Of a stretch of DNA of 64,000 bases, positions 14,218-60,623 are shown one piece after another. The position numbers and the translations under genes are program-made. Positions within the stretch are counted from its first letter, which is position 1; the number at the start of each line of letters is the position of its first letter. Source of the DNA: an uncultured Chromatiaceae bacterium. Its GTDB lineage: Bacteria > Pseudomonadota > Gammaproteobacteria > Tenderiales > Tenderiaceae. The stretch spans positions 9,088-73,087 of the forward strand of contig CAMYNQ010000001.1 of assembly GCA_947259785.1 (NCBI GenBank), written 5' to 3'. Below the pieces are notes generated by a model. The model saw only the letters and a list, made by a program, of their open reading frames with translations. It made no database searches and was not told where the DNA came from.

Positions 14218-15453
14218 ATGTTTTTTGCGGCCGAAATCTTGTCCTGGTTACTGATTATCATCAGCGCCTGGATTGGGCTGTGGTTGCTTCTTGCAGCCTA
14301 TTTTGCCCCTACTCTGCGAGCACTGTGGCATGAGCCGGTATTGCGTCACCCGATACTCATAGTGGAAAGTGACGACTGGGGGGCTGGCCCGTCAAAGCAG
14401 GCCCAGGCACTGCAAAAACTGATAGAACTGCTTTCCCGCTTTCATGACCACACCGGACACCCCCCCGTCATGACCCTGGCCATGATCCTGGCGGTCGCAG
14501 ATGGTGTAGCGATACGCGCCAACGGCACATACCAGCGCCGCACCCTGGAAGAGCCGTTATACGCCCCCATACGGAAAACCATTACAGAAGGGATAGAAAA
14601 GAGGGTATTTGCCATCCAACTACACGGCCTGGAACATTATTGGCCTGAAACGCTGATCAGCAGTCAGGACAAGACAGTGCAACGATGGCTGATGGAAGAA
14701 ACGCCTCAAGCCACCGAACCCCTGCCCTCCCATCTCCAGAGCCGCTGGATAGATGCCTCTACACTCCCATCCCGACCACTGCCAGACACTGCCATCCAAC
14801 CTGCCGTTCGGGAAGAGGTTGCCTTATATCGCAAAATATTTAGCCAGTTACCTAGAACAGTAGTCCCCCCCACCTTTGTCTGGACCGATGCCGTAGAGTC
14901 GGTGTGGGCAAGGCAAGGGATCGAATACGTAGTCACTCCTGGCCGGCAAAATACTTCGCGTGATGCACATGGAAAACCCGCCGCTACAGCAAACAGAATC
15001 CGCAATGGCGAAAGAAACAACAACGTTACTTATATCGTGCGCGACGACTATTTCGAACCCATGCTCGGTCATACGGCGGAAAAGGCGCTGGCGGCACTCA
15101 CTCACAAGACCCGGCTAGGCCGCCCCTGTCTGCTCGAGACCCACCGATTCAACTTCGTCGGTGAGGATGAACAAGTACAACGCTCCATGGCAGAATTGTC
15201 ACGCCTGCTGCAGAAAGCCTTGCAGACTACACCAGAATTACGTTTCATCAGCACAGAAGCGCTGGGGCTTGCCATGCAGACAAAAGATCCGGAATGGGTG
15301 GAACACCATTTAGGGCGCCGCCTGACAGTGATGGCCAAGCGTATCGCTGAAGTGCCTCGCCTGGGCAAACTCTCACGTCTCACTGGCCTGCTCACGCTGA
15401 CAAGGCTGGCTGCTGCCATGCTTGGTTACAAATCAGCAGCCCCGGCAACATGA
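14218..15453 (+). CDS. Hypothetical membrane-anchored protein (possible deacetylase/hydrolase-like barrel)
   Basis: N-terminal TM helix. Motifs ILIVESDDWG and IQLHGLEHYWPE are reminiscent of the Asp-Asp and His motifs of NodB/DUF2334-type enzymes. The family assignment is a guess. Confidence 0.45.
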   Translation: MFFAAEILSWLLIIISAWIGLWLLLAAYFAPTLRALWHEPVLRHPILIVESDDWGAGPSKQAQALQKLIELLSRFHDHTGHPPVMTLAMILAVADGVAIRANGTYQRRTLEEPLYAPIRKTITEGIEKRVFAIQLHGLEHYWPETLISSQDKTVQRWLMEETPQATEPLPSHLQSRWIDASTLPSRPLPDTAIQPAVREEVALYRKIFSQLPRTVVPPTFVWTDAVESVWARQGIEYVVTPGRQNTSRDAHGKPAATANRIRNGERNNNVTYIVRDDYFEPMLGHTAEKALAALTHKTRLGRPCLLETHRFNFVGEDEQVQRSMAELSRLLQKALQTTPELRFISTEALGLAMQTKDPEWVEHHLGRRLTVMAKRIAEVPRLGKLSRLTGLLTLTRLAAAMLGYKSAAPAT

Positions 15454-15492
15454 CAACTATTGCAACAGCCATCTCAAATTGGTCGAATTAGA

Positions 15493-16656
15493 ATGAACAA
15501 AAAACCTTTATCCTGCCTGATGCTCACCGAGATCTTCCTCCCCACCAAGGGTGGAACTGCCGTCTCCTTCGATGATGACTTCCGCCGCCTGGGGGGGAAA
15601 GAGGTACACATCATCACCGCCGATGTCCCCGGGGCAAAAGAATTTGACCGACTACACCCTAACACAGTGCACCGTTTGGGACTCAAAAGGGTCCCCTGGC
15701 TCAAGCCCGAATCCGCCCTCATGTATGCCAAATTTTTCGGCCGCGCCCTGAGCCTTGCCATGACACGGCACATCGATGCGGTCTTTTCTGGCCGCGCCCT
15801 GCCGGAGGGACTCTGCGCCTGGGCCGTTGCCAGACTCCGTCGCAAACCGGTGCTGATCTATGCCCACGGCGAGGAACTCACAGGCTGGGGACGGGGGGGA
15901 AAATTCAAGGCCATGTGCTTTGCCCTGCGCCATGCCGACTGGGTGCTCTCCAACAGCGATTTCACCCGCGACACCCTGGTCGATCTGATCGGAGTGGATC
16001 CGAAACATATCGCCATCGTCTACCCAACTGTGGATGAGCAAAGGTTTCGCCCAGGCCTGCCCGCGGATGACCTGCGCACCAGCATTGGGCTGTCAGGCGA
16101 GCAAAAATTGATCCTCTCCGTCGGCCGTCTACAAAGGCGCAAGGGTTTTGACAACGTGATTCGGTCGTTACCGGCGCTGATCGAACAGGGACTGGATGTC
16201 CACTATGCGCTGATCGGTATCGGCGAAGATCACGACTACCTGACTAGCCTGGCCCAGGAACTCGGGGTAGCACAGCGCATACACTTCCTTGGCCATGTCA
16301 GCTACGACGACCTACCCCGCTGGTACAACGCCTGCGACCTGTTCGCCATGCCCAACCGCGACATCGACGGCGACACCGAAGGCTTCGGACTGGTCTACCT
16401 GGAAGCCGCTGCCAGTGGTAAACCGAGCGTGGCGGGGAACACCGGGGGGACAGGCTCCGCCGTTGCGGATGGTGAAACGGGCTTGCGGGTGAATGGCGAA
16501 GAGGTGAAAGAGATTATCACTTCCTTGGCGCGGCTTTTATCTGATCCTGTTCAAGCTGAAATGATGGGCCGCCAGGGGCGAGAACGGGTGCTGGCAAACT
16601 TCACGCACGAGCGGCGGGTGGAAGAGTTGCGTCAGCTAACTCTGGTGAAGCGCTGA
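15493..16656 (+). CDS. GT4-family glycosyltransferase
   Basis: LTEIFLPTKGGTA at the N-terminus and C-terminal FAMPNRDIDGDTEGFGLVYLEAAASGKPSVAGNTGGTGSAV (E-x7-E). ATG 15493 is preferred over the TTG at 15460. Confidence 0.8.
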   Translation: MNKKPLSCLMLTEIFLPTKGGTAVSFDDDFRRLGGKEVHIITADVPGAKEFDRLHPNTVHRLGLKRVPWLKPESALMYAKFFGRALSLAMTRHIDAVFSGRALPEGLCAWAVARLRRKPVLIYAHGEELTGWGRGGKFKAMCFALRHADWVLSNSDFTRDTLVDLIGVDPKHIAIVYPTVDEQRFRPGLPADDLRTSIGLSGEQKLILSVGRLQRRKGFDNVIRSLPALIEQGLDVHYALIGIGEDHDYLTSLAQELGVAQRIHFLGHVSYDDLPRWYNACDLFAMPNRDIDGDTEGFGLVYLEAAASGKPSVAGNTGGTGSAVADGETGLRVNGEEVKEIITSLARLLSDPVQAEMMGRQGRERVLANFTHERRVEELRQLTLVKR

Positions 16657-16710: not shown

Positions 16711-17478
16711 TTAGGAACTTGACTCCTCCAGAAACCACTCGTACTGGCTGCCCATGAGAGCAGCTCGTACTTCGTCATAGTTCTCAATCAGCATGTCTAA
16801 TTTTTCGGGATTCTGCTTTGCCGTCCTCGGCGCTACAATCGCGGCCTCGTCCTCACCGACCCCAAGGAACTCAAAAATGTTTCTCATAATGCCATCACGA
16901 TTGGATACAAGCTGCTCATAATCAACCATGATATTTTGAAATTCGTTAGCCAAGGCATCACTACCTCTATTTTTTGCCTCCATGCGAGAAAAGGCGCGAT
17001 GTAGATCATCTATGTCTACCATAACAGTGACCCGCTCCCCTCTGTGCTCGCTCGCGCTCCAACGGTTTTCCTTATTCGCGATCATTGACGAGACATACCT
17101 CCTAAGCAGATTACGCCTAATCAGCCTGACAATTTTAAATTCATGTGTCTGCCAGTAGTGCCGAAAACTGGGGCATCTATTGAACTGGCCTGGATACAAA
17201 ACCTTGAAGCCAACAGCCCGTATATCCCCCCGAGACTCAACCGTACAAAGGGAATCAAGATACGCCCCCATGCAATAATCTCTCAAATATTTGTCAGACA
17301 TACGCCTTAGAAAAGACTTACATACCCAGTTCGCATACCCCTTGCCATAGCTAGGATTAAACGCTTCTCCGAAGCACGTAACTTGTGGATGTTCATCCAG
17401 CATTGACTGCAGCATGTTGCTGCCACTACGGGCATTACTCAACACAACGAATCTTTGAAGACCTTTCCCTTGCGACAT
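16711..17478 (-). CDS. Sulfotransferase (2 of 7; Stf0/Sulfotransfer_3-like)
   Basis: FVVLSNARSGSNMLQSML (5'-PSB loop) and KIVRLIRRNLLRRYVSS (3'-PB-like). Start at MSQGKG (ATG 17478) follows AGGAGA. Confidence 0.7.
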   Translation of the reverse strand: MSQGKGLQRFVVLSNARSGSNMLQSMLDEHPQVTCFGEAFNPSYGKGYANWVCKSFLRRMSDKYLRDYCMGAYLDSLCTVESRGDIRAVGFKVLYPGQFNRCPSFRHYWQTHEFKIVRLIRRNLLRRYVSSMIANKENRWSASEHRGERVTVMVDIDDLHRAFSRMEAKNRGSDALANEFQNIMVDYEQLVSNRDGIMRNIFEFLGVGEDEAAIVAPRTAKQNPEKLDMLIENYDEVRAALMGSQYEWFLEESSS

Positions 17479-17618
17479 TATCAGTAGCTCTCCTATTATA
17501 CGACTGGGGCCGAACCCCATCCCACTCGCTTATCATTGCTTACTGCGCCAATGAAGCCATTGGGCATCACCACCCAACCCTACCATCGCCGATGGTAGGC
17601 CAATTTAGTAGAGCCGGC

Positions 17619-19172
17619 TCAGTGCTCAACGCTCCGAGCAGCTGTATCCGCCAAAACTGAATTCTTATCCTTTGACAAGACCACCACGCCTATACCATCC
17701 ACTATGCCGACACTGGCAGGGTGCGGCCAAGGCACATGCTTAGCCGCGTATTGAATAACTTTCGGCATAGTGTTATCCGCAGCCACGAAATTCACATCCT
17801 CTCTCATCAGGCGAGCAAGATGCTGCATGTGCGGTGGGTCTATGAACTCGGTTGCTACCCCGGTAGCACTCTTGTAAGGGTAAACGGAACTCATATCGTA
17901 ACTGCCAACAACAACAATACTCTTGCCATCCCATTGTTCATCAGGAAGAGATCTTATACGCGCCAATATCTGCGTCATCGTCGTATAGTGCGCCAGCATA
18001 TTCAGGTGATTGACGGTCGAAATCCAGTTGCACTGGAGGATGTAGCCTGCGACAAGAACGATTGCCAACAGGGACGAAAGATTTCGCACCAGGATAGGAC
18101 CCGCCCTATTGATAATCATGATAAAACCGGCGATAACTACGGCATATCCTGTAAGTGTAAGATTATGATAATCGCCGTCAGGATGAAGAAGCTGCAAGAC
18201 CCTCGGCATGAAGAGCGTTAGCACCAATACAAATACTGCGCTGACCTTTGCTGCATAGCCTTTCGGCAGCCAAAGGCAAAATACCGTTGCAACCACCAGC
18301 AAGACCAGCTGCAGTTTTTTCAAGTATTCCGGAAAATAGTTTTGCGGCCAGAAAAAGAAGCTTCGTGTTCCATGCACAATTTCGGATACTGCATATGAAA
18401 GATTCATGCCGCCTTCGAGATTGAACGCTTGACCCGCCGACTGGTAGGAGTCAAATTTTAAACCCATAGACGAGACTATAGCCAAGTATATCAGGCCTCC
18501 GACGCCAACGGAGATTAGCACAGCAATTACAGACTTCACCATTTTTTTGGAAAAGAACGATTCGATATCTCTCTCAAACAGAATCTTGCTCAGAAACCAA
18601 ACACAAAAAATTGTCGCTGCGTTTGCAACCACGCTTTGATAAATTGAAAATGCACCCACATAAAGCATGGATGCCATTACCACATGAAGAAAGGTCGCTC
18701 TAGTGGACAAGATAACCGCAGCTGCAGCCAAGAAGTGGGCCATGGAAAAGGCGGCTACAGAGGTATTGTATTGATAGAGCTGGGCCATGTATGGGAATAC
18801 ACACAGAACGGAGGATATTAAAACTATATCCAACACCTTGCGAGCACCCCAGAATTTGGATATGAGCATCCCGTAAGCAGTCATCAACATAATCGCTTCG
18901 ACCATCTGCAAGAACGGCATAATGTAGGCGTTCTGGCCATAATAGTGTAGCCAACCGAAGCCGAAACGGCCTAGGTAATGACCAAGGATGGTGCTTTGAA
19001 TAAAGATGTGACTTACATCGTCATGATGCAGCGTTAGGTTGGTCATCTCAAAACCGAAGGCCAACAGATTAATACCCACGACGAGAAAAAAAGCCGTTTT
19101 GTACGAAGGATCGACTCTACGCCAAGCCTCGGACAATACTTGATCTAATGGTTTGCTGAATAAAAGCTTCAA
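17619..19172 (-). CDS. Large polytopic membrane protein, GtrII/GT-C-like putative periplasmic glycosyltransferase
   Basis: About 11-12 TM helices, an acidic first-loop motif LTLHHDDVSH and a ~110-aa soluble C-terminal domain. It occupies the 'serotype-specific Gtr' position downstream of the gtrB/gtrA-like genes. Confidence 0.5.
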   Translation of the reverse strand: MKLLFSKPLDQVLSEAWRRVDPSYKTAFFLVVGINLLAFGFEMTNLTLHHDDVSHIFIQSTILGHYLGRFGFGWLHYYGQNAYIMPFLQMVEAIMLMTAYGMLISKFWGARKVLDIVLISSVLCVFPYMAQLYQYNTSVAAFSMAHFLAAAAVILSTRATFLHVVMASMLYVGAFSIYQSVVANAATIFCVWFLSKILFERDIESFFSKKMVKSVIAVLISVGVGGLIYLAIVSSMGLKFDSYQSAGQAFNLEGGMNLSYAVSEIVHGTRSFFFWPQNYFPEYLKKLQLVLLVVATVFCLWLPKGYAAKVSAVFVLVLTLFMPRVLQLLHPDGDYHNLTLTGYAVVIAGFIMIINRAGPILVRNLSSLLAIVLVAGYILQCNWISTVNHLNMLAHYTTMTQILARIRSLPDEQWDGKSIVVVGSYDMSSVYPYKSATGVATEFIDPPHMQHLARLMREDVNFVAADNTMPKVIQYAAKHVPWPHPASVGIVDGIGVVVLSKDKNSVLADTAARSVEH

Positions 19173-19259
19173 GAGGCAACCTCAAATGGTGGTTTATTGG
19201 TTTTGAATTATGTTCAATGAGAGCCCATGTGATTAGAGCTTATGAGATATATTTTTCGC

Positions 19260-20114
19260 TCATGTTGCAAGGTCTGCATATGATATCAATTTCACACCCT
19301 TGCGCTCCAACAAATCTTTTACACCCTGATTCGTCAAGGCTTTGAGTTCATCTTGCCAGCGGTACTCCCAATGATCATAGCGGCAATCCGCGTCGTAATC
19401 TCCTGGATGGCACATCAGCTCGCAGGCTCCATTGGCGGGGAGGTTTTTTAAAACCTTCCGTAAGTTTTCTTCGCTTACATTACCACCGAAGAAAAAACCA
19501 AAAAAGTAATCGGGTCGTTTGGAACCCGATGTATTCGCAACGGAACAGAAGGTGTTTAACGCAAGAAGCTGCACCAATCGACTCAAGCTATGCTTTTCAT
19601 TCAACATGTACGACTTCAACCGCTCCTTGGGATAACGAATTGAAGGTATGGAATACTTCTTGGCTAGTTCACCGACTATTCTTCGAATACCCGGCAGCAT
19701 ATGAATGTGCTGATGACTATCAAGATGACTAATCTCTATAGAGTTATTCAAGACCTTCTGAATTTGCGCATCGAGCTCGCGTCTAACCTCATCAAGAGAT
19801 ACTTTCCCGAGAAAATATCGCTTCATAAAGCTAACCGCGTGACCATAGAAGCGCCCGTTATTATCAAGCAGTGTTGTTATATCCTCTTTATTTGATAGTG
19901 CTTCTTCCTCGATTAGGGTTAGATGTATTCCAATATCGAGGGTAGGTGTGGATCGGGATAGCTGAATGGCATGATCAAAAGCCGTCCCGACCGACATAAT
20001 TGAAGTGGAGGTGAGAATGCCATTGCGGTGCGCCTCTAAAATTCCTTCGTTTATTTTTTCCGACAGACCGAAGTCATCGGCATGCACAATGAGCTTACAA
20101 TTAGCCATAGACAT
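19260..20114 (-). CDS. YdjC-family carbohydrate deacetylase (ChbG/NaxD/HpnK-like)
   Basis: KLIVHADDFGLSEKINEGILEAHRNGILTSTSIM and LDIGIHLTL are signature YdjC N-terminal motifs. Confidence 0.85.
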   Translation of the reverse strand: MSMANCKLIVHADDFGLSEKINEGILEAHRNGILTSTSIMSVGTAFDHAIQLSRSTPTLDIGIHLTLIEEEALSNKEDITTLLDNNGRFYGHAVSFMKRYFLGKVSLDEVRRELDAQIQKVLNNSIEISHLDSHQHIHMLPGIRRIVGELAKKYSIPSIRYPKERLKSYMLNEKHSLSRLVQLLALNTFCSVANTSGSKRPDYFFGFFFGGNVSEENLRKVLKNLPANGACELMCHPGDYDADCRYDHWEYRWQDELKALTNQGVKDLLERKGVKLISYADLAT

Positions 20115-20122
20115 AACATACT

Positions 20123-20635
20123 CTAATAGGAAATCCCCTCATGCGATGAATCCGCAAAGGTCCAGTATTTATTACCAAAAAAATTAAGCATCATCACAAC
20201 ACCAACAGTGATGAACCACACGACAACATAGGGGCCAGAGAGCAAGTCAACAAAGACAAAAATGATGATAGTACTCAACATCAATCCCAAGACATTAAGA
20301 ATAAAGAAACGATGCGCCTGCCGAACCGCATCCCCTTGCGCCTCGAAGGTCCATAACTTGTTTAGGATAAAACTATTTATCATTCCCGCAAGATAACCAA
20401 CGACATTAGCAAGCGCCGCATCCATACCATGTATACCAAATTCGGCCAGCAGGGTTTCTATTTGCCACCCCAATGACCCCGCAGCATCTAGAACCAGGGC
20501 AGTAAAAGGCCAGACTTTGTAACATAAAATAAAAACAATAAAACTCACCAAAACATTAAGGCAACCAACAATGGCGAATTTGGCGAACTGCTTTGTATTC
20601 AGCAATGTCACTAAATTTGTTAATACAGCTTTCAT
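20123..20635 (-). CDS. GtrA-family small membrane protein (polyprenyl-phosphate-sugar translocation)
   Basis: 170 aa with 4 TM helices. FAKFAIVGCLNVLVSFIVF at the N-terminus and FGNKYWTF at the C-terminus, both typical of GtrA. Confidence 0.8.
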   Translation of the reverse strand: MKAVLTNLVTLLNTKQFAKFAIVGCLNVLVSFIVFILCYKVWPFTALVLDAAGSLGWQIETLLAEFGIHGMDAALANVVGYLAGMINSFILNKLWTFEAQGDAVRQAHRFFILNVLGLMLSTIIIFVFVDLLSGPYVVVWFITVGVVMMLNFFGNKYWTFADSSHEGISY

Positions 20636-21660
20636 GGTCTGAAATTTGTATTCTCTGCCGATGACATTGCGTTATCTGCTTCGCGCGCAGATTGCCCAAC
20701 ACCCTCTCTCTCGCTCACGAGAAACCTTGGGCGCCCTCGTACTTCTTCGACAATTCTACCCACGTATTCTGCCAAAACAGCCAAAAATGCAAACAACACA
20801 CCAAACAGAAAAGAGATAATCGCGACGGACGAGGCCCATCCAGGAACGGCGGACCCCACTACCCACTTGCTAAGTATTGCGTAAAAGACACTAACAAAGG
20901 CTATCCCGGAGGAAAGGAGCCCTATTAAGATACCAATGCGTAGCGGCACAAGTGAAAATGAACTAATACCATGCCAGGCAAACTTAAGCATTTTTCGAAA
21001 AGTATATTTAGTCTGACCGCTAAACCGGCTACGACAATTGAACTTTACAATGGAGCTTGGGTACCCGACCCACTGGACAATCCCTCTGAGGAACAGACCT
21101 TCCTCCTTAAACTGCAAAATATCATCAAGCGCTTGACGATCCAGGAGTCGAAAATCGGCCATCCCGCCTTGTATCTCTACACCACTAAGATATGAAAACA
21201 ATCGATAATAGAGTTTGGATGTTAATTTCTTAAATACTGATATATTTTCTCCATCCACACGCACGGTTTTCACAATCTTATTGCCTTTGCACCATTCGTC
21301 AACAAGGAGCGGGACAACCTCTGGTGGGTGTTGCAGATCGGCATCCATGGAGATAACAGCGTCGCCGACGGCGTTACTCAGACCCGCGATCAACGCGTGT
21401 TGATGACCGAAATTGCGGGACAAACGAATGCCGCGCACGCGCGGGTCTTCATTGTGGAGGGACTTAATATCGTTCCACGTATCGTCCGTGCTGCCATCAT
21501 CAACGAAAACTATCTCCCAAGACATATAAAGGGTAGATAATGCTCCGTCGAGCTCAGTGTAAAGTTTAGACAGATTGCCTTGCTCATTAAATGCAGGAAC
21601 AACAATCGATAGGGTTGGGTGTTCGTCTGCAGGATTGGTGTTGCTTATATTTGGTCTCAT
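20632..21660 (-). CDS. GT2 polyprenyl-phosphate hexosyltransferase (GtrB/ArnC/DPM1-like)
   Basis: LSIVVPAFNEQGNL, IVFVDDGSTDDT and ISMDADLQHPPE, plus two C-terminal TM helices. 4-nt overlap with the gtrA-like gene. Confidence 0.85.
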   Translation of the reverse strand: MRPNISNTNPADEHPTLSIVVPAFNEQGNLSKLYTELDGALSTLYMSWEIVFVDDGSTDDTWNDIKSLHNEDPRVRGIRLSRNFGHQHALIAGLSNAVGDAVISMDADLQHPPEVVPLLVDEWCKGNKIVKTVRVDGENISVFKKLTSKLYYRLFSYLSGVEIQGGMADFRLLDRQALDDILQFKEEGLFLRGIVQWVGYPSSIVKFNCRSRFSGQTKYTFRKMLKFAWHGISSFSLVPLRIGILIGLLSSGIAFVSVFYAILSKWVVGSAVPGWASSVAIISFLFGVLFAFLAVLAEYVGRIVEEVRGRPRFLVSEREGVGQSAREADNAMSSAENTNFRP

Positions 21661-23093: not shown

Positions 23094-24122
23094 TTAATAG
23101 ATCTTCCATCCCTGGCTTCCATATTTGGTGAAATGGCAACTGGAGACCTGGCCTTTGGTATTTTGCAAGGCACGTATGACGTCCATGCGTTTGGCCGGGT
23201 CTACAAGCAGCATCATGAAGCCACCACCTCCAGCACCTGAAATCTTACCCACTTTCATCCCAGCCTCTTTCGCTAGTGCATAGGTTTCTTCTATTTCTGG
23301 ATTGGAGATACTCTTTGCCATACGTTTTTTGGCCACCCAGCCGGCTTCCATAGAGCGCACCAGACCATCAAAGTCCCCTTTTAACAGGCACTCCTTGATT
23401 TGTATTGCCTCCTGTTTCAGGGCATGCATAGCCTCGATGGCATCCGAGTCGTTCTGTTTGACGTTGTTGGCTTGTTCGTCGATGATCTCTGCCGATTGAC
23501 GTGAAACACCGCCAAAATAGAGCAACAGGGAAGATTCAAGTTCAGAGATGATCCAGTTCTTGATCCGAAGGGGATTGACCACTACCCGCTCGTCCTTATG
23601 GAATTCCATAAAGTTAAAGCCACCAAAGGTGGCTGCATACTGATCCTGACGCCCACCCGAGAGACCAACATCGATACGTTCAATTTCATAGGCAAGCCGG
23701 GCGATATCATACTCGCCAAGGGGCAAATTCAACCATTCGACAAAGGCCTTGATCATGGAAACCACCAGGGTCGAGGAGGAACCCAGGCCGGAACCGGGAG
23801 GGGCATCAGAATGAGTCGTCAAAGTCAGCGACAACGGCTCGCCATTGTTGAACTGTTTCACGATGCGATTATAGACGCCCTTGTGCAGATCCAGGGTTCC
23901 GTCCAACGCCAAGCTGGAAGCTACATCAGCTTGCCACGTCTCCTGCCGGTCAGAGGCCACAAATCTAACCATTGCATCTACTGCAGGCTCGATGGTGGTA
24001 TAGGCGTATTTGTCGATGGTGGCATTCAAGACAACTCCGCCGTACATATCACAGTAGGGCGAAACATCTGTACCACCGCCAGCCAACCCAAGCCTAAGCG
24101 GCGCCCTGGCTCTTATTATCAT
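23094..24122 (-). CDS. hddA: GHMP-family D-glycero-alpha-D-manno-heptose 7-phosphate kinase
   Basis: [22 protein letters not shown] motif [10 protein letters not shown] and [11 protein letters not shown]. Start at MIIRARAP (24122, GGAG 9 nt upstream) overlaps the 3' end of the upstream gene. Confidence 0.8.
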
Positions 24123-26244
24123 TGGTATCATCTCCGGGAAATTTGTTCGTGTAATTATCATCACTCATCCACTGCGCAAGCAAGGATTTGAGCTGACTTG
24201 CAATCTGCGGATTTTGCTCAAGCACATTGTAGCGGCATGCTGCATCTTCACGGATATTGAAGAGCTGATACAAAGCGCCATCACTGAGCGGCTGGTAAGT
24301 GAGCTTCCACTCGCCCAATCTCACCATGCGGTCTTTGGCGGCGATAATAATGTCCTGGTACTGAGGCTTAAGCGAGATCATTCCCCGCTCTTTGTCCGGC
24401 ACCTCCAATAATTCAGGCAGATTGGGGTAACGCAGGTGCCCATCCGGGGTGCCTGGCAGGTCGGTAAGCCAGACCCCTGTCTCGTAAAATGCAGGCAGCT
24501 CGTCGGCAAGGGGCTCATCACTCATCAACGGGCGTAATGAAACGCCTTCCATCGAATCAGGAAGAGGAAAATCAATCAACTCCAAAAGAGTGGGCGCAAG
24601 ATCCACCGTCCTCACTACATCAGCAATTGTCCTTGACTGTGGATTGCGTGGATCAGCGATGACCAGCGGTACGCGCGCGGAAAAATCGCCAATGGCGGAA
24701 TTGCCCTGGCCCCAGGTCTCATGCTCAAAAAACTCCATGCCATGGTCACTGAAGACGCCGACGATGGTGTTATCCGCCAAACCGGAGGCCTCCAGATAAT
24801 CCAGGATACGCTTCAGCTCATCATCAAAATTCTTCACGCAGCCATCGTAGAGATTGATGATCTGATCGAGATCGAACTCTGTCTTTGGCTCGCCCTGACG
24901 ACGGATGATCTCGAAGGGGTCTCTGAGCCTGGCCATAGCAAACTTGGATTCGCCTCGATACTCCTGGTCTGCATACATGGAGTAATAAGGATATTTGGAG
25001 GTAAAAGGCGGATGGGTTGTCGCCATAAACGACATCAGAAAGAAAGGCGCATCCTGTTGGGCCAGGCGGGCAATCATCCGTCGGGTATCCCGCCCCTCCT
25101 CTTCCGTCAAGGGGTGTCCGCCCAGATAATAGACTTCAGGCAAAAAGGTCTTACCAAACCAGTTCTGCGTAAACAGGGACAGAAATAGACGAATATCCTT
25201 GGGGCCTTGACGCAGCAGATATTTGATATTCCACTGATCAGTAGGCATATCGGTGTAATCAAAACCAAAATCAAATTTATCCACATCAGAAACAGCCCAG
25301 TCACCAACCGCAGCTGTCTTATATCCCCTCTTAGCCAGGATCTCCGGCAGCGCAGCAACCGGGATGCGCGTCTCATCCGGGCTAACAAAGGTATCGCGCA
25401 CCCCATGAGTATGGGGCCAGGTACCCGTCAACATGGAAACCAGGCTGGGTGCCGTACGCGCACAGGGGACATAACAATCCGTAAAACGGGTGGCACGACG
25501 GGACAAGGCCTCAAGGGTAGGGGTCAATTCACGGGGATAACCCGTGCCGTTCAAACGATCGGCCCGCAAGGTGTCCGAACCTATCAAGATTATATTGGGT
25601 GCGGCACGATCCCCCTTTGCCTGGACTGGACGGGGTTCACGACGCCATGAGAAGAAGCCTATAACAACGGCATAAAAAACAATAATTACCATCACAAAGC
25701 CAAAGCTCTGCCAATTACTTTCACCCGCCAAAGAAAACAGGCCGGCAGAAAGCCAGCCTGTAACAACAATCCCCATACATATATCGAACATGCGGAGACG
25801 CGCAGGGTTCAACCACTCCCAAAGCCCATAAAAGCGAGTCAGTGAATAGTTAGACGAAGAAGCAAGCACCCCCGGCGACAAAATCAGCGTATGCAAAAAC
25901 CGGCGCGCAGTCAGAAAGAAGATACCTAACGCAGCTGCCACCGCAGCCATGACCGAACCATAACTATGGTCAAACAGAATCAGGCCAATGACATACAACA
26001 ACACGCCAAGAAACGCCATGCCAGTGCTAATCAAAAAAGTATAGAAGGCAAGCCTGCCAAGAGAATAGACCAGGTAAAAACGGTAATGAGATAAGACCTC
26101 GCCAGACATCTGCGGACCGGTGCGGGTAAAATCGCGCAATGACTTGGCAAGCAACAACAAAGTAAAAGCCATACCCACAAGCGCGCTCATCCCCAGGCCA
26201 TAAGCAAGAGCGTTGAGGGTCACATTACTTCCAACAGACGTCAT
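24094..26244 (-). CDS. Membrane-anchored alkaline-phosphatase/sulfatase-superfamily protein (putative phospho-substituent transferase)
   Basis: About 6 N-terminal TM helices, then [30 protein letters not shown] (Thr at the position of the sulfatase Cys/Ser; no CxPxR) and VFSDHGMEF. Confidence 0.7.
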
Positions 26245-29241: not shown

Positions 29242-30168
29242 TCACGCTGACAGCCACCCGCGTAGGTAGCCCCAGAAATAGACCATGTTCATCTCCAGCC
29301 GCAGGGAATGATTCTTTCCCCGGCCCAGACGCTGTGAGATCGCCTTCCACACGGCCCGGGCAAACTGGCCAAAGAGATATCGGGGCGGCAGGCGCGAACC
29401 GTTGCCCCGTTTGCGCGTCCCCTCCATACGACCCTGGCGGTAGTGCAGTTCCAGAAAATAGCCGCGCCGAAGTTTATCCACCTGGATGCGGTGATGGATA
29501 ATCGCCTCGGGCACCCAACGTATCTTGCTACCTGCGGCAAGCAAACGTCGATAGAACTCCGTGTCTTCGCCACCATCATTGACGCTGCCCTTACGCCCCA
29601 ACTCGGCATCAAATTCACCGATAGTCGCGAAGAGCTCGCGTCGCACGGCGAAGTTGCCGCCGTAAAACGGCGTATTGGGCTCGGTAAGCCAACACGCTTC
29701 ACCATACTGGTTGAGCCGACCCAGGAAACCAAGCAACTCATCCTGCAGCCAGCTCGGGCGATCGCCATGTTCAAACAGGACCTCGATCCGCCCTCCCAGG
29801 GCATCTGGGCGATGGACCAAAATCGCCTGCTCGTAGGCCTTCAGCCACTGTGAGTCAGGAGTCTCGTCATCATCCACAAACAACAAGTACTCCCCCTTCG
29901 CCTCCTTCAGAGCCCGGTTGCGAGCATTTGACAGACCCAGCTTCATCTCCCGTACGATACGCACAGGCACTTCAAATGGGCGCCACTCAGTTGCCGCCAA
30001 CAGCTGCGGAGTATCATCAGAGCAGCCATTATCCACCACCACCAGCTCCCAGCGACGAGTCGGTGAATTGAGTTTGCCAAGATCCTCCAGGGTACGTTGC
30101 AGACGGTCGGCGTGATTGTGGGTACACAGGGCGACTGTGATTAAGATGGGTTCAGAGGTGTCATTCAT
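29242..30168 (-). CDS. GT2-family glycosyltransferase (tandem paralogue B)
   Basis: ITVALCTHNHADRLQRTLEDL, VVVDNGCSDDT and LFVDDDE. Colinear similarity to 28167-29138 throughout. Confidence 0.8.
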   Translation of the reverse strand: MNDTSEPILITVALCTHNHADRLQRTLEDLGKLNSPTRRWELVVVDNGCSDDTPQLLAATEWRPFEVPVRIVREMKLGLSNARNRALKEAKGEYLLFVDDDETPDSQWLKAYEQAILVHRPDALGGRIEVLFEHGDRPSWLQDELLGFLGRLNQYGEACWLTEPNTPFYGGNFAVRRELFATIGEFDAELGRKGSVNDGGEDTEFYRRLLAAGSKIRWVPEAIIHHRIQVDKLRRGYFLELHYRQGRMEGTRKRGNGSRLPPRYLFGQFARAVWKAISQRLGRGKNHSLRLEMNMVYFWGYLRGWLSA

Positions 30169-30977
30169 TACTGATTCGTTCCTTCCGTCCTCAACCCCAG
30201 CCTGCTTTTAACACGCTCGCCATAATAGTTCAGCGTCTGGCGCCAAGAACCATCATTGCTACCGAAAAACACCTTTCGTGCCAACATCGCCGGGGTGTCG
30301 GTGCCGAAAACATCAAGGCGGCGGATGCGGTAGGGGTGCACGTCACGACGGTTAAATCCAGGCTGCACCGAGAAGGCGGCCTGATAACCCGCCGCTTGCG
30401 CCGCCTTCAACACCCGTTCGTCGTAACGACCATAGGGGTAGGCCAGATAGGGGATCGGCTCATCCAACAGCGCCTGCAAATCCTGACGCGAACCGGCCAG
30501 TTCATCCGCCAATTGCGCATCGCTGAGCGTGGTGAGATCGGGATGCAAGCGGGTGTGAGAATGGAAGGTAAAACCCATGCCACGCATCGCCTCGATCTGT
30601 TCCTTTGCCATCAGCGGATAGGAGGCACCACTAGGGTTGTGACTACGGCACCACTCATCCTCTTTGCCGATCAGCTGACTGACCAGGAATACGGTGGCTG
30701 GCCAATTCATCTCGCGCAATACGGGGGCGGCGTGCTCGCACACCCCCAGAAAGCCGTCATCGAAAGTGAGCAAAAAACTGCCCTCTGGCAGTTCCTTATC
30801 ACCCGCCAGCCAAGCAAAAAAATCATCCAGGCTGCAGGCGCACATGCCCCGCGCCGCCAGTTTTTGCATATGCCCGGCAAACAGCGAAGGGGGCACACAG
30901 TAACGCCGCTCCCAGTCGTTATGGGTTGCACCAACACGATGATACATCAACACCGGGATACGCCGCGCAACACTCAT
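30168..30977 (-). CDS. Polysaccharide deacetylase (CE4/NodB fold)
   Basis: IPVLMYHRVG, LLTFDDGF (Asp-Asp motif) and FHSHTRLHPDL (His motif). Confidence 0.8.
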   Translation of the reverse strand: MSVARRIPVLMYHRVGATHNDWERRYCVPPSLFAGHMQKLAARGMCACSLDDFFAWLAGDKELPEGSFLLTFDDGFLGVCEHAAPVLREMNWPATVFLVSQLIGKEDEWCRSHNPSGASYPLMAKEQIEAMRGMGFTFHSHTRLHPDLTTLSDAQLADELAGSRQDLQALLDEPIPYLAYPYGRYDERVLKAAQAAGYQAAFSVQPGFNRRDVHPYRIRRLDVFGTDTPAMLARKVFFGSNDGSWRQTLNYYGERVKSRLGLRTEGTNQ

Positions 30978-34691: not shown

Positions 34692-36071
34692 GTGAACACA
34701 ACTACACAAGCAAAAGTATTTTGCATTGGCCTATCCAAAACAGCCACCACTAGCCTGGCCGCCGCCCTAACCCAACTCGGATACAAGGTCAGAGATAACA
34801 TTGGTGTCACACGGTACACCGCCGGGGATATCAGCTGCATAGATGAGCATGAATTAAAGAGTCACGACGCCTTCACCGACACGCCAATCCCTTCCTTTTA
34901 CAAACAACTCGATGCCAAATACCCGGGCTCCAAGTTCATCCTGACCAGCCGTGAACTAAAAGCCTGGCTCTTATCGTGCAAAAAGCAGTTCACCCAAAAA
35001 CATGCTGATGCACGCAGTGACGCAGTCAATCAGTTGTTTCTGGACCTTTATGACAGCACCTGTTTTGATGAGGAAAAATTCACCCATGGCTACAATCGCT
35101 TTGTCGCCGATGCGAAAGACTATTTCAAAGACCGCCCATCAGATTTTTTGGTGATCGACCTATGCGAAGGTGAGGGCTGGGACAAACTCTGCCAATTCCT
35201 GGGCAAACACATCCCTGATATCCCGGTTCCAGTGACAAATGTCACCAAGATCCAGTGGCTAAAAGTTGAAGATATTGTCGCTATCGCCCGCGAGGCGGGG
35301 AAAAAACTTCCCCAACCCCCTCAGATCTCCAACACGACACCAAGCACCCCCGCTGTGGGAATACTCGGCCGGATCAGCAACAAGATACAAGCGGCAAAAT
35401 CTCAGCGCCAGCGTAAAAATATACAAAAGTCTAAAAATGCGGCCCATAAAATCATCGTAGATGGACTCACAAGACTAAATCCGACGATACCAATCCTGTC
35501 TGTAGAAGGCCAAAATGAACCCTACTCGGAACGGAAGGGCTGGAGCCATCTCTGGCTAATTGATATCCACAGCGGGGCAGAAGCCTACCTTAATCATGGC
35601 ACCCCATTAACCGTCAGCATTGCATTGATCGAAAATGGCTCACCCAGGACAGGGGTCGTATATATCCCTAAAAAGGACACTGTCTACTACACAAAAAACA
35701 CCGCCGTCAGCTTCAAACAGGTAGGACACAGCGAGCCCATAGAGTTACATGCCGATAACGATCAAGATCAAGATCAGAGATTACCCGTCATCTCGTCTGC
35801 TGGAAACATCCCATCTGATGTGCTTGCGTGCCACAACAATACTGATAACACCACCACTCAAAGACAGCAAGCCACTGCATTGGCGCTATGTGCGGTTGCC
35901 GAAGGTGCTGCAAAGGCCTACATTGGCACTGAGTCGGCGAAAGAGTGGGAGGTTGCAGCAGCCCACGCCATTATCAATGGCGCAGGAAAAAAGCTCATAA
36001 ATCACCTAACAGGTGAAACGCCTCGATACAATGGAGAACACTTGGCAGTGGAGCCAATTTTGGCAAAGTAA
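34692..36071 (+). CDS. Fusion protein: N-terminal sulfotransferase (4 of 7; Sulfotransfer_4-like) plus a C-terminal degenerate CysQ/inositol-monophosphatase-like domain
   Basis: N-terminus: VFCIGLSKTATTSLAAALTQLGY. C-terminal half is colinear with CysQ: AAHKIIVDGLTRLNPTIPILSVEG, WLIDIHSGAEAYL (in place of W.VDP.DGT), LTVSIALIENGSPRTGVVYIP and KEWEVAAAHAIINGAG (in place of WDTAAG). GTG start per the ORF track. Confidence 0.7.
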   Translation: MNTTTQAKVFCIGLSKTATTSLAAALTQLGYKVRDNIGVTRYTAGDISCIDEHELKSHDAFTDTPIPSFYKQLDAKYPGSKFILTSRELKAWLLSCKKQFTQKHADARSDAVNQLFLDLYDSTCFDEEKFTHGYNRFVADAKDYFKDRPSDFLVIDLCEGEGWDKLCQFLGKHIPDIPVPVTNVTKIQWLKVEDIVAIAREAGKKLPQPPQISNTTPSTPAVGILGRISNKIQAAKSQRQRKNIQKSKNAAHKIIVDGLTRLNPTIPILSVEGQNEPYSERKGWSHLWLIDIHSGAEAYLNHGTPLTVSIALIENGSPRTGVVYIPKKDTVYYTKNTAVSFKQVGHSEPIELHADNDQDQDQRLPVISSAGNIPSDVLACHNNTDNTTTQRQQATALALCAVAEGAAKAYIGTESAKEWEVAAAHAIINGAGKKLINHLTGETPRYNGEHLAVEPILAK

Positions 36072-42088: not shown

Positions 42089-43402
42089 TCAAGATCTTAT
42101 GGTAACGTTCCCATACTTCATCGCCCTGTCCTTGTTACCTCCAACCTGATCACTTTTATCCTCTTCATCTTTTTCCGAGCCTGCCAGATATTTCAGCGTC
42201 AGCACTTGCAATATGACTACAATGGCAACAAAGTGGTAGATCAGGTCAAAATAGGCCTGACTGATGAATGCGCCCCCTACCATATAGGCAACCATACTCA
42301 CCTGCAGCATCGCCGCCAGATCTCCAGCCCAGCGCAAACCTTCGTGCTTTTTGCTCTTTCGCCTCACCCATGAGGCGGTTCGCCAGGTAAAAAAGAGCAA
42401 TAACAAGAACAAAAACAGCCCCACATAGCCGTGCTCACCAAGGATCTGGAAATAAATACTGTGGGCAGCACGCCGGCCTGCAGTAACCTCAAACCCTCCC
42501 CCGACGATGGGGCTGGCATTTGCTACTTTGATTGCATACTTCCAGGCATCAATGCGCCCCATGGCGGAGCCATCTTCCTCATAGGTTTCTATCGTATGCA
42601 TACGCGCCTTCCATTCTTCCGGCACGAAGTTGTAGGCTGCATATCCCACCACAGCCATCATTACTATCAATAGAAGTTTACCGCGGCTCTTGAACAACAA
42701 GATTAGCGACACAGCGGCCAGGCCCAGAGCGGCACCACGAGAAGAGGTGCCCACCACGGCAAATACTGTCAAGCCAATGGCCGCAGTCATGCCATGTTTG
42801 ACCCACCAAACAGGAGTACTAAGCTGCAGGTAACGCATTAACGGAATCATCATATTCAACGCCGTCCCAATCTCGCCACGGGTTCCAATAAAGGAGCCTC
42901 CCGGCCCTAAAACCCTATGCGCCCCACCTGTCTGGATCGTAAATATCCCACCTTTGACACCGTAAAAACCGAGCGATAAGACAATAACCCAAATCAGTAT
43001 CTGCAACCGTTTCTTATCGGTAATAAACATCATGGTAATGAAAACAAACAACATTACCTTCCATACCTTATCCCACTTGAACCACGCCCAATACTGCAGG
43101 TCGGCAAACAGGGTCGTGATAAACATCCAGACAACAAACGTCAGCAGCAGCACCGATTCCCGGGTCCATGGGATCTTCCTTGACTCCTTGGTAAACAGCA
43201 TGGCAATAAGCGTGGCGCCTGCCGCCATCTCGGCAAACGGCAGGGCACTCCAGGCGAGGCGATGTGGGTTCATGTAACCTATCCAGGACCAGACGTAGAC
43301 GCCGATATGGGGCTGCCTCAAGATAAAGGGCAGGCTGGCAATAACAATTGCTAATAGAAGGAGGGCTCTCACGTCTTGCCTAGCGAGGGTTTTATGCCTC
43401 AC
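42089..43402 (-). CDS. O-antigen ligase/Wzy-like membrane protein, exosortase-A-associated 'O-glycosylation ligase' type
   Basis: Polytopic. SLPFILRQPHIGVYVWSWIGYMNPHRLAWS matches the N-terminal signature I recall for the XrtA-associated ligase family. A large periplasmic loop carries HSIYFQILGEHGYVG. Confidence 0.75.
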   Translation of the reverse strand: MRHKTLARQDVRALLLLAIVIASLPFILRQPHIGVYVWSWIGYMNPHRLAWSALPFAEMAAGATLIAMLFTKESRKIPWTRESVLLLTFVVWMFITTLFADLQYWAWFKWDKVWKVMLFVFITMMFITDKKRLQILIWVIVLSLGFYGVKGGIFTIQTGGAHRVLGPGGSFIGTRGEIGTALNMMIPLMRYLQLSTPVWWVKHGMTAAIGLTVFAVVGTSSRGAALGLAAVSLILLFKSRGKLLLIVMMAVVGYAAYNFVPEEWKARMHTIETYEEDGSAMGRIDAWKYAIKVANASPIVGGGFEVTAGRRAAHSIYFQILGEHGYVGLFLFLLLLFFTWRTASWVRRKSKKHEGLRWAGDLAAMLQVSMVAYMVGGAFISQAYFDLIYHFVAIVVILQVLTLKYLAGSEKDEEDKSDQVGGNKDRAMKYGNVTIRS

Positions 43403-44225
43403 TACCTCCCTGCGGTTTTATAGAAAACCAGCGCACCCTGAGAGGCAGGCTCAACCCCATGAGCATGCCATTCTTCACCTGCTCGGCAAGCCGTTGTTCA
43501 TGCCGCAAACCACGGTCTTTCACCTGGTAAAGTCGCCCCTTTTCAATCTGATCCTGGCCAAACTGTTCGCCACGCTCCAAACGATCCAGCAATTCGGCAT
43601 ATACCTCGGCACTGTCACGCACTGCCCGCCAAAAAAGAGTCAGCTCATCATCATCCTCTTTCACTTCAGGAGAGACATGGGCGATCAGATGGCCGGTATC
43701 GATTCCGGTATCGATAAAATGCAGTGTGCAGCCAACCTGTTCTGGCTCACCATTATGCAACGCCCAGAAGGTGCAGTCCGCGCCGCGGTAATGGGGCGAG
43801 AGACCACCATGAAGATTGACGATGCCCAGGCGGCCCTTTTCCAGCAACGCCCCTTTGATCAGTGAAGTACCGAATACGGCTATCACATCGGGCTTGAGCT
43901 TGTCCGCCAGCGCCACTACATCAGGATGGTTGATATGGGGCACGGCAACGGCCAGGTCTTGCCTGTCCAGCTTCGGCTCTTGGTCGCCGAAGAAAAACTG
44001 GGCTTCGCCCCCCCCGGTGTAGCGCTTTCTATCACGCAGCCAACGCCAGACCTTGCGCCATAACTTCACTGGACTGGACAGCAGTTTAAGCACCTTACCT
44101 GCATTCAGGTCGCTGCCCACCTCCTGCACGATCGCCACCGGTTTAGCGGCCTTGCAAAGCCGGTTGGCTACGTAGAGATGACGCGGCGAACGACCACAGA
44201 GAATCATTACCGTCAGCTCAGACAT
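43392..44225 (-). CDS. Formyltransferase-family protein (Fmt/ArnA-N/sugar N-formyltransferase-like)
   Basis: IVNLHGGLSPHYRGADCTFWAL (Asn/His catalytic motif) and HFIDTGIDTGHLI (Asp motif). The ATG at 44225 overlaps the upstream stop (ATGTCTGA). Confidence 0.7.
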   Translation of the reverse strand: MSELTVMILCGRSPRHLYVANRLCKAAKPVAIVQEVGSDLNAGKVLKLLSSPVKLWRKVWRWLRDRKRYTGGGEAQFFFGDQEPKLDRQDLAVAVPHINHPDVVALADKLKPDVIAVFGTSLIKGALLEKGRLGIVNLHGGLSPHYRGADCTFWALHNGEPEQVGCTLHFIDTGIDTGHLIAHVSPEVKEDDDELTLFWRAVRDSAEVYAELLDRLERGEQFGQDQIEKGRLYQVKDRGLRHEQRLAEQVKNGMLMGLSLPLRVRWFSIKPQGGSEA

Positions 44226-45429: not shown

Positions 45430-45456
45430 TACAAGCTTTTCCTTAATTCCACATTG

Positions 45457-46851: not shown

Positions 46852-46854
46852 TGC

Positions 46855-48075: not shown

Positions 48076-48165
48076 TATGTGCTACCGCTTCCAACAATCT
48101 ATAGATAAAGCGCAGGCTAAATAGGCCGGAGCCGCCTACATCTATTATATTCCTATGTCTTCCAC

Positions 48166-51952: not shown

Positions 51953-52075
51953 TGATCTTCAATTGATAACATAGAAACAGAATTTCCGGGTTAATAAAAA
52001 TAGACAGCATTTATCACGCTGCATGAGTTCACCCCATTAGAGCATGCAGGCTCGAAACCAATACAGTCGCACCAT

Positions 52076-53350: not shown

Positions 53351-53429
53351 ATACCCCCCTAATACTGACGTCTGTCAACTGACACCCAATGCGTAACGTG
53401 AAATACAACACTACGTTTTGTCTTTGCAT

Positions 53430-54668: not shown

Positions 54669-54673
54669 ACAGC

Positions 54674-56310: not shown

Positions 56311-56383
56311 ATGTCGTTTATCCATCTGCTCACACGATTGCATAATATTGAGTTCGCTATAGGCACGAGCAACAAGGGCAACT

Positions 56384-60550: not shown

Positions 60551-60623
60551 GAATTCATTATTTCCTTTATTCTTAGCCGCATGCGCCTTACCTGATCATG
60601 CCCCGTATCTCATTCCTACCCAG

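Follow-up and report, generated by a model that had tools for sequence, protein, structure and literature searches.

A four-gene module in a 64,000-nucleotide stretch of DNA from an uncultured Chromatiaceae bacterium (contig CAMYNQ010000001.1; the whole stretch is called the window below) probably serves to deliver a de-N-acetylated, cationic hexosamine on a lipid carrier to the outside of the cytoplasm, where an exopolysaccharide (EPS) is the likeliest acceptor. We give this reading of the sequences a probability of about 0.65. The module encodes a GtrB/ArnC-type glycosyltransferase of family 2 (GT2), a small GtrA-family membrane protein, a YdjC-family de-N-acetylase, and a polytopic membrane glycosyltransferase of the GT-C superfamily (GT-C).

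In the proposed pathway, the membrane-anchored GT2 would move an N-acetylhexosamine (HexNAc) from a UDP-sugar to undecaprenyl phosphate (Und-P) at the cytoplasmic face of the membrane, as its family and architecture suggest. On the same face YdjC would strip the N-acetyl group, producing Und-P-hexosamine (Und-P-HexN). This second step is proposed because the catalytic residues of YdjC are intact, its predicted location is cytoplasmic, its gene linkage is obligatory, and NaxD provides a precedent. GtrA would then flip this lipid-linked sugar to the outer side of the membrane. Finally the GT-C, for which fold, topology, and motif are modelled, would use the Asp-Asp motif of its external loop 1 (EL1) and its 11-transmembrane (TM) scaffold to transfer HexN to the acceptor, presumably the sulfated, heptose-containing EPS of the surrounding XrtA/PEP-CTERM locus. 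An earlier note on this DNA had proposed the same order of events, from Und-P-HexNAc through Und-P-HexN and flipping to periplasmic transfer, and Pfam matches, fold, YdjC residues, and synteny support it computationally.

The four genes and their predicted products

The genes lie closely packed on the minus strand (Table 1). The GT2 and GtrA genes overlap by 4 nt, and gaps of 8 nt and 87 nt separate GtrA from YdjC and YdjC from GT-C, so the open reading frame (ORF) coordinates agree with the arrangement first described. In public gene calls YdjC begins at the third codon, which shortens the protein to 282 aa and widens the gap after GtrA to 14 nt. All four Pfam families named beforehand for these proteins are matched above their gathering cutoffs.

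GT2 matches Glycos_transf_2 (PF00535) at 3e-32. Its DADLQH motif starts at residue 106 and two hydrophobic peaks are found near the C-terminus (residues 244-262 and 279-297). Residues 16-321 align over the full length with the solved GtrB of Synechocystis (sll0501, 5EKP) at 238 bits, while ArnC and archaeal dolichol-phosphate mannose synthase (DPMS) score 146 and 83 bits in the same structure-sequence comparison. The best NCBIfam matches are PgfS (240 bits) and ArnC (151 bits), both below their equivalog cutoffs, and GtrB of phage SfIV, a bactoprenol glucosyltransferase, is 38% identical. A GT-A domain, a DxD-type motif, two C-terminal TM helices, and full-length similarity place the protein among the GtrB/ArnC/DPMS-type GT2 enzymes, as expected from the earlier description. 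By sequence it is a polyprenyl-phosphate monosaccharide synthase, and in the present context a putative Und-P-HexNAc synthase.

The second protein matches GtrA_DPMS_TM (PF04138) at 1e-23 over the entire profile (1-117 of 117), which bears out its earlier assignment to the GtrA family. It is small and polytopic, with hydrophobic peaks at residues 20-38, 73-91, and 111-129 and a further hydrophobic stretch to about residue 158. GtrA is thus the candidate flippase for the lipid-linked sugar.

YdjC covers nearly the whole of PF04794 (1.4e-74, profile 1-265 of 266) and carries the motif IVHADDFGLS at residues 9-18. Its PDB matches are 2I5I and 7VI8 (ChbG). In Klebsiella pneumoniae ChbG, zinc is bound by D11, H61, and H125, and D10 and H206 act as general base and general acid (PMC9402603). 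In the HMMER alignment the three zinc ligands correspond to D14, H64, and H134 of YdjC, the base to D13, and the acid to H236, so the metal ligands that the earlier note expected along with the motif are retained. In 17 YdjC proteins encoded alongside the GT-C elsewhere, these five residues are invariant. The protein has zero predicted TM segments, and the position of the catalytic Asp pair (residues 13-14) leaves no room for a signal peptide; it is therefore likely to be cytoplasmic. YdjC would be the Und-P-HexNAc deacetylase of the pathway.

NCBIfam holds no curated model for NaxD or LgmC. The best NCBIfam match of YdjC is the HpnK model (TIGR03473), with 207.2 bits against a cutoff of 232.6, and the ChbG model (NF002559) gives 180 bits against 227. 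Pfam and NCBIfam scans of the window find no chb or phosphotransferase system (PTS) genes. Neither do scans of the window proteins find hpnH, an hpnI-type gene, hpnJ, or a full-length squalene-hopene cyclase near the module. Both a ChbG role in chitobiose metabolism and an HpnK role in hopanoid synthesis were rejected for YdjC on the sub-cutoff scores and the missing partner genes. In the hopanoid case, GlcNAc would be placed on bacteriohopanetetrol and then deacetylated, as by HpnI and HpnK. HpnK being the top curated match (207 bits) favors this, as does the automatic JGI annotation, which labels many homologues of YdjC as HpnK. Besides the score and the missing genes, however, a modification at the cytoplasmic face would not call for a GT-C and a flippase-type protein, to which YdjC is obligatorily linked, and we regard this explanation as extremely improbable. 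A search of a plasmid collection with YdjC yields mainly ChbG-type proteins at 31-34% identity among the matches listed, and a NaxD- or Lgm-like context is not found there.

The 517-aa protein matches Glucos_trans_II (PF14264) at 3e-25 (residues 43-345, profile 4-315 of 317). No PMT or PMT_2 match is found in its Pfam scan, and a sequence search against PDB chains gives zero matches. An AlphaFold2 model built from 45 homologues (predicted local distance difference test, pLDDT, 78; predicted TM-score, pTM, 0.79) has 11 TM helices and a C-terminal alpha/beta domain at about residues 408-500, after the last helix. In a Foldseek search of the PDB with this model, every high-probability match is a GT-C enzyme (STT3/AglB, ALG12, Pmt4, EmbB/C, AftA/B, PimE, and ALG3), whereas transporters have a probability of at most 0.2. 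A transporter identity was rejected on this ground. TM-scores are modest (0.35-0.47) and back the fold class, not any specific relative.

The first loop after TM1 contains HHDD (H49, H50, D51, and D52). Among the 45 homologues H50, D51, and D52 are invariant and H49 is conserved in at least 90%. It is reported that an Asp pair in EL1 forms the active-site motif of GT-C and PMT enzymes (PMC7801869). The positively charged N-terminus and the helix count suggest that the first loop and the C-terminal domain of the model are extracytoplasmic. With a polytopic core, an acidic EL1 motif, and the GT-C fold, the protein belongs to the GT-C superfamily, and the features noted earlier (an acidic first loop and a soluble C-terminal domain in a polytopic protein) reappear in the model. 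Its predicted activity is the transfer of HexN from Und-P to the acceptor.

The GT-C is distant from its phage namesakes. More than 100 full-length homologues share 57-77% identity. In a HMMER search of 1.84 billion (1.84e9) cluster representatives only 31 reach E<=1e-30, and the few full-length clusters have identities of 60, 42, 41, 31, 30, and 29%, beyond which values fall to 20-27%. Translated searches (tblastn) of 50,697 phage records, including the Shigella Sf phages, give zero matches at E<=1e-3. The label GtrII-like, given earlier, holds for the PF14264 profile and does not extend to close kinship. Nor does the protein qualify as a Gtr(type) of serotype-converting phages, having no phage similarity and being encoded in a chromosomal EPS locus. 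On these comparisons it belongs to a compact group of orthologues among the PF14264-like GT-Cs, at some distance from phage GtrII. Genome matches come from 21 species-level genomes, of which one is cultured (Desulfacinum infernum DSM 9756). The nearest relative (77%) is from a metagenome-assembled genome (MAG) of an uncultured Desulfobulbaceae bacterium; other hosts are Gammaproteobacteria, Thiobacillus/Thiobacillaceae, Casimicrobiaceae, and Burkholderiales MAGs.

Conservation of the module and exchange of its parts

Synteny was compared in 26 distinct related loci, of which three are on contigs too short to judge. In all 23 informative loci the GT-C gene is found within about 5 kb of a GtrB-type GT2 gene and a YdjC gene, which implies that the arrangement is not due to chance. 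Every intact GT2 gene among them encodes two C-terminal TM helices. Gene order varies (GT2-GtrA-YdjC-GTC, YdjC-GT2-GTC, and divergent or convergent forms). The conserved core is the trio of GT2, YdjC, and GT-C, and GtrA is replaceable. Of the quartet for which a synteny survey had been suggested, the trio is thus found in every informative locus, and the form with GtrA is a minority found in seven loci including the window.

The loci fall into two classes. Class i consists of the window, L001, L019, L027, L030, L031, and L032; all seven have GtrA (50-59% identity), and their GT2 and YdjC proteins are 67-81% and 55-76% identical to those of the window. Class ii has 17 loci, mostly from Betaproteobacteria, with GT2 at 34-41% and YdjC at 29-37%. 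Only L011 among them has GtrA (30%), and 14 of the 17 encode a hydrophobic EamA-like protein of 110 aa (e.g., L002, positions 15247-15579), which is absent from class i and has a sub-threshold EamA match of 21 bits. The class ii loci without it are L011 and two on edge or short contigs. The mutual exclusion of GtrA and the EamA-like protein is the pattern expected if both fill one shared flippase step, and it suggests that the EamA-like protein is an alternative, ArnE/F-like flippase.

GT2 and YdjC lineages always co-vary, and on a neighbour-joining tree of the GT-C the class i loci are not monophyletic. Such interleaving of co-varying pairs indicates selection for the three activities together. 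These relationships are most simply read as follows: the GT2 and YdjC pair would make the lipid-linked donor that the GT-C needs, a small membrane protein would export it, and alternative, exchangeable genes would have filled the donor-making and export roles. Class i YdjC and GT2 genes are also found beside PMT_2-type GT-Cs (L029) and unknown partners (L028), implying that the donor-making pair is a portable unit.

These linkages also bear on a simpler explanation, in which the module is an ordinary gtr cassette that moves glucose or another neutral sugar while YdjC is merely co-located and acts on a cytoplasmic oligosaccharide or on GlcNAc of the repeat unit. The 38% identity of GT2 to the phage glucosyltransferase and its full-length match to sll0501 would fit, and for YdjC enzymes such as ChbG the substrate is soluble chitobiose. 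YdjC is, however, linked to GT2 and GT-C in 23/23 loci whatever the gene order, its lineage co-varies with that of GT2, and the same YdjC type pairs with GtrB-type GT2 and PMT_2 GT-Cs in L029. The chb and PTS genes are not found in the window, and a separate deacetylase of carbohydrate esterase family 4 (CE4) is already there for work on polymer or repeat unit. We consider co-location without a shared function quite improbable, and delivery of a deacetylated hexosamine remains the preferred reading.

In most relatives a FAD-dependent oxidoreductase of the GMC family (about 540 aa) adjoins YdjC or GT2. It is found in L002 (12323-15579 region), L004, L007, L010, L012-L018, L023-L026, and L032. 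A short-chain dehydrogenase/reductase (SDR) with a long N-terminal extension (389-438 aa) stands alongside the GMC gene in the loci with gene tables (L002-L005 and L032). This pair recalls DprE1/DprE2, and by analogy might oxidize and reduce a lipid-linked sugar. No GMC homologue is found in the window, and its Pfam scans turn up no ORF of the GMC or SDR family.

The four genes and the sulfotransferase gene next to GT-C form a block of low GC content (16711-21660). GC of the block is 0.42-0.47 compared with 0.50-0.59 in the conserved flanking genes on both sides, and GC at third codon positions (GC3) is 0.45-0.53 compared with 0.57-0.68 in the conserved backbone genes on both sides. This suggests acquisition or exchange of the whole block in one piece, and the difference from the flanks fits a module replaced in situ. 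A tRNA scan of the window finds none, hence gives no hint of an integration site. In a related locus (L031), toxin-antitoxin pairs (HigB-like with helix-turn-helix, MazE-like, PIN, and PhdYeFM) directly follow the hddA end of the EPS locus (17508-19509).

The sulfotransferase gene, directly downstream of GT-C and with a GC of 0.47, is possibly co-transcribed with the module. L027 has a homologue (32%) in the same position after GT-C, beside genes for synthesis of 3'-phosphoadenosine-5'-phosphosulfate (PAPS), and the Thiobacillus locus has one (30%) 5.5 kb away. In L001, L031, and L032, no such homologue is found next to GT-C. With adjacency in the window and L027 only, the enzyme is not generally supported as a fixed member of the module. 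A more novel but very doubtful idea is that the sulfotransferase N-sulfates Und-P-HexN with PAPS before flipping and that the GT-C then transfers N-sulfo-hexosamine. The low-GC block and the homologues in L027 and Thiobacillus speak weakly for it, and the three loci without adjacency speak against it. If true, the reaction would be a bacterial, lipid-carrier counterpart of the N-deacetylase/N-sulfotransferase step of heparan sulfate, and N-sulfo-hexosamine on Und-P would be the first lipid-linked sulfated sugar donor.

The surrounding EPS locus and the choice of acceptor

The window is a very large polysaccharide locus. It has rmlABCD, and immediately upstream of the module are hddA, hddC, and gmhB, the genes for GDP-D-glycero-alpha-D-manno-heptose. 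It also encodes at least six sulfotransferases (one as a fusion with a CysQ-like phosphatase), numerous enzymes of the GT2 and GT4 families, the CE4 deacetylase, WbsX, and Wzx. Three proteins of the XrtA system exceed their NCBIfam cutoffs: exosortase A (XrtA) with a fused EpsI domain (364 bits, cutoff 208), the XrtA/PEP-CTERM amidotransferase (1102 bits, cutoff 817), and an XrtA-associated putative O-glycosylation ligase resembling O-antigen ligases (454 bits, cutoff 188). These identify the whole window as an XrtA/PEP-CTERM EPS locus. Related loci share the GT4 of the window (70-74%), the hdd genes (63-81%), a sulfatase-family protein (68-72%), sulfotransferases, and Wzx. Judged from this gene content, the module is associated with a conserved kind of EPS locus for a sulfated polymer containing heptose, and for this reason the EPS is proposed as the acceptor.

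The earlier note had left the acceptor as EPS, lipopolysaccharide (LPS), or another periplasmic molecule. The XrtA/PEP-CTERM context favors EPS and makes LPS less likely; EPS, or possibly PEP-CTERM proteins, is the likelier acceptor compared with LPS or lipid A. The same pathway could instead decorate lipid A or the LPS core and lower the negative charge of the envelope. This is the sole experimentally established use of a YdjC, ArnC-like GT2, and GT-C set in Gram-negative bacteria, and the strong conservation of the GT-C (57-77% in more than 100 homologues) would suit such a conserved acceptor. Known lipid A transferases are ArnT-like (PMT/PMT_2), however, whereas the GT-C here is of PF14264. 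The module lies inside EPS clusters at every locus with enough flanking sequence, beside homologues of the EPS genes of the window, and scans of the window proteins find no lipid A genes near it. An LPS acceptor is unlikely on balance.

Another acceptor to be weighed is protein, i.e., the GT-C might O- or N-glycosylate exosortase-sorted PEP-CTERM proteins with HexN. The three XrtA-system proteins are consistent with this. Protein glycosyltransferases (STT3/AglB and Pmt4) are the top Foldseek matches of the GT-C, and PgfS, the best NCBIfam match of GT2, is from a streptococcal protein-glycosylation system. Given the low TM-scores and a core common to all GT-C enzymes, the Foldseek ranking says little about the acceptor, and GtrB scores as well as PgfS against GT2 (238 and 240 bits). 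A PEP-CTERM substrate gene adjoining the module is not identified. We think it improbable that protein is the acceptor, and EPS stays the preferred one.

Several points weigh against the pathway as proposed. The acceptor is deduced solely from genomic context. The HexNAc specificity of GT2 rests on its pairing with YdjC only; PgfS and the glucose-specific GtrB score alike in sequence comparisons, and the donor could carry GlcNAc, GalNAc, or another HexNAc. Moreover, the transferred sugar may differ between loci, in spite of GT-C identities of 59-65%, because most relatives carry the GMC and SDR genes and the window has neither. The best curated-model match of YdjC is HpnK. Finally, scans of the region from 16.4 to 26.6 kb give 12 sigma-70 promoter-like sites (12.5 expected) and 11 intrinsic terminator-like sites (11.7 expected). 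Both counts are at chance level, so the operon structure is read from gene spacing alone.

If the reading is right, a cationic, non-acetylated hexosamine would be placed on a heavily sulfated, heptose-containing EPS, giving a zwitterionic, glycosaminoglycan-like matrix polymer. EPS loci of the exosortase type in many metagenomes repeatedly carry the GT-C with GT2 and YdjC; their hosts are Thiobacillus relatives, Casimicrobiaceae, Burkholderiales, Gammaproteobacteria, and Desulfobacterota. It is reported that sulfated anionic glycoconjugates are common in the EPS of granular sludge (PMC10483923). The module would be one candidate route by which an amino sugar reaches sulfated EPS polymers.

The 716-aa sulfatase-family protein has multiple TM helices at its N-terminus and a domain of the sulfatase/alkaline phosphatase superfamily (PF00884, 3.8e-48). 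It is 68-72% conserved beside hddA in distant relatives, and its architecture appears closer to LtaS/EptA-type transferases than to catabolic sulfatases. The fusion of Sulfotransfer_4 to an inositol-monophosphatase/CysQ-like domain would couple sulfate transfer to removal of the by-product 3'-phosphoadenosine-5'-phosphate (PAP). A 411-aa protein with an N-terminal TM helix and a weak match (1.6e-7) to glycoside hydrolase family 57 (GH57) is 39-53% conserved in several related EPS loci, beside the GT4.

The window also contains a second candidate module for a lipid-linked amino sugar (Table 1). It includes an ArnC-like GT2, a transaminase, acyl- and formyltransferase genes, an ATP-grasp enzyme, a flippase-like protein, and a PMT_2-family GT-C. 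Together with rmlA and rmlB of the window it could deliver an N-acylated 4-amino-6-deoxyhexose to the periplasm.

Table 1. Positions of the module genes and of other features of the window
Feature	Positions	Strand	Family, score, or remark
411-aa GH57-like protein	14218-15453	plus	1.6e-7
GT4	15460-16656		
Cytoplasmic sulfotransferase, 269-aa ORF (called as 255 aa)	16711-17520	minus	PF13469, 2.8e-15
GtrII-like GT-C membrane glycosyltransferase, 517 aa, TTG start	17619-19172	minus	PF14264; Pfam and AlphaFold2 model
YdjC-family metal-dependent de-N-acetylase, 284 aa	19260-20114	minus	PF04794
GtrA-family small membrane protein, 170 aa	20123-20635	minus	PF04138
GtrB/ArnC-type polyprenyl-phosphate GT2, 342 aa	20632-21660	minus	PF00535
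716-aa sulfatase-family protein	24094-26244	minus	PF00884
CE4 deacetylase	30168-30977		
Sulfotransferase/CysQ-like fusion	34692-36071	plus	Sulfotransfer_4
XrtA-system genes	42089-43402 and 58661-62222		NCBIfam
Second candidate module (whole)	43392-56406	minus	
Formyltransferase	43392-44267	minus	
PMT_2-family GT-C	48166-49764	minus	
WecE-type dTDP-4-amino-4,6-dideoxyhexose transaminase	49764-50921	minus	593 bits, cutoff 375
Flippase-like LPG_synthase_TM protein	50918-51952	minus	
ATP-grasp enzyme	53430-54668	minus	
NeuD/VioB-family N-acetyltransferase	54674-55315	minus	
ArnC-like GT2	55312-56406	minus	190 bits to ArnC

Comparison with known systems

No description of this combination of enzymes in such a genomic setting is found in a literature search. 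Two clusters that turned up in it, the Pap cluster of Pseudomonas and the gsf cluster of Actinoplanes, are unrelated arrangements. The chemistry is known and would not be mechanistically surprising to a specialist, and the combination of enzymes and its genomic setting are apparently undescribed.

Two close parallels act on lipid A. NaxD, an enzyme of the YdjC family, removes the acetyl group of Und-P-GalNAc, and galactosamine (GalN) is then transferred to lipid A (PMC11279074). In Bordetella, lgmA-C are required for glucosamine on lipid A, and lgmD is dispensable (PMC4993483). Francisella FlmF2/NaxD/FlmK and Bordetella LgmA/LgmC/LgmB likewise cluster an ArnC/GtrB-type GT2, a YdjC, and a GT-C, and they follow the logic proposed here, in which Und-P-HexNAc first loses its acetyl group and what is then transferred outside the cytoplasm is a free amino sugar. 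The window has the gene clustering of the NaxD/LgmC type but not the ArnT-like (PMT/PMT_2) partner, its GT-C being of PF14264, and a GtrA-family protein is added. The setting is an XrtA/PEP-CTERM sulfated EPS locus instead of an LPS context, and the hosts of this type are environmental Desulfobacterota, Betaproteobacteria, and Gammaproteobacteria.

A polysaccharide acceptor is known from mycobacteria, in which PpgS, Rv3632, and Rv3779 add GalN to polysaccharide through polyprenyl-P-GalNAc, with the deacetylase and flippase unidentified (PMC9671496). The Mycobacterium/Corynebacterium system (GalN on arabinogalactan) likewise has a synthase, a small membrane partner, and a GT-C. With 18 bits to the PpgS model (cutoff 370), the GT2 of the window is no orthologue of PpgS; the envelope types differ, and the operon of the window encodes candidates for both deacetylase and flippase. 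The module would bring together synthase, deacetylase, flippase candidate, and transferase in one complete and compact set, for a type of pathway that has gaps in the mycobacterial system. The exchange of GtrA for the EamA-like protein would provide a natural experiment on the question of which small membrane proteins flip Und-P-monosaccharides.

The gtrA-gtrB-gtr(type) phage cassettes of Shigella and Salmonella glucosylate O-antigen. They likewise have GtrA, a GtrB-type GT2, and a PF14264-family GT-C in a tight co-directional cluster. In the window YdjC is inserted, and the predicted donor is HexN rather than glucose. Its GT-C is strongly conserved and not serotype-variable, and the module is not associated with a prophage.

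In the Arn pathway (ArnC, ArnD, ArnE-ArnF, and ArnT), an N-acylated amino sugar, placed on Und-P by a GT2, is de-N-acylated on the carrier, flipped by a small membrane protein, and transferred by a GT-C, adding 4-amino-4-deoxy-L-arabinose (L-Ara4N) to lipid A. The logic common to this pathway, to FlmF2/NaxD/FlmK, and to the reading proposed here is that the amine is protected by N-acylation while assembly goes on in the cytoplasm, and the acyl group comes off on the carrier ahead of export. The small EamA-like protein of the class ii relatives is reminiscent of ArnE/F. The deacylase is a YdjC here and the CE4-type ArnD there, and further differences concern the sugar, the family of the GT-C, and the probable acceptor. 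HpnI/HpnK again combine a GT2 and a YdjC enzyme acting on its lipid-linked GlcNAc product, whereas in the window the GT-C and flippase partners point to transfer outside the cytoplasm.

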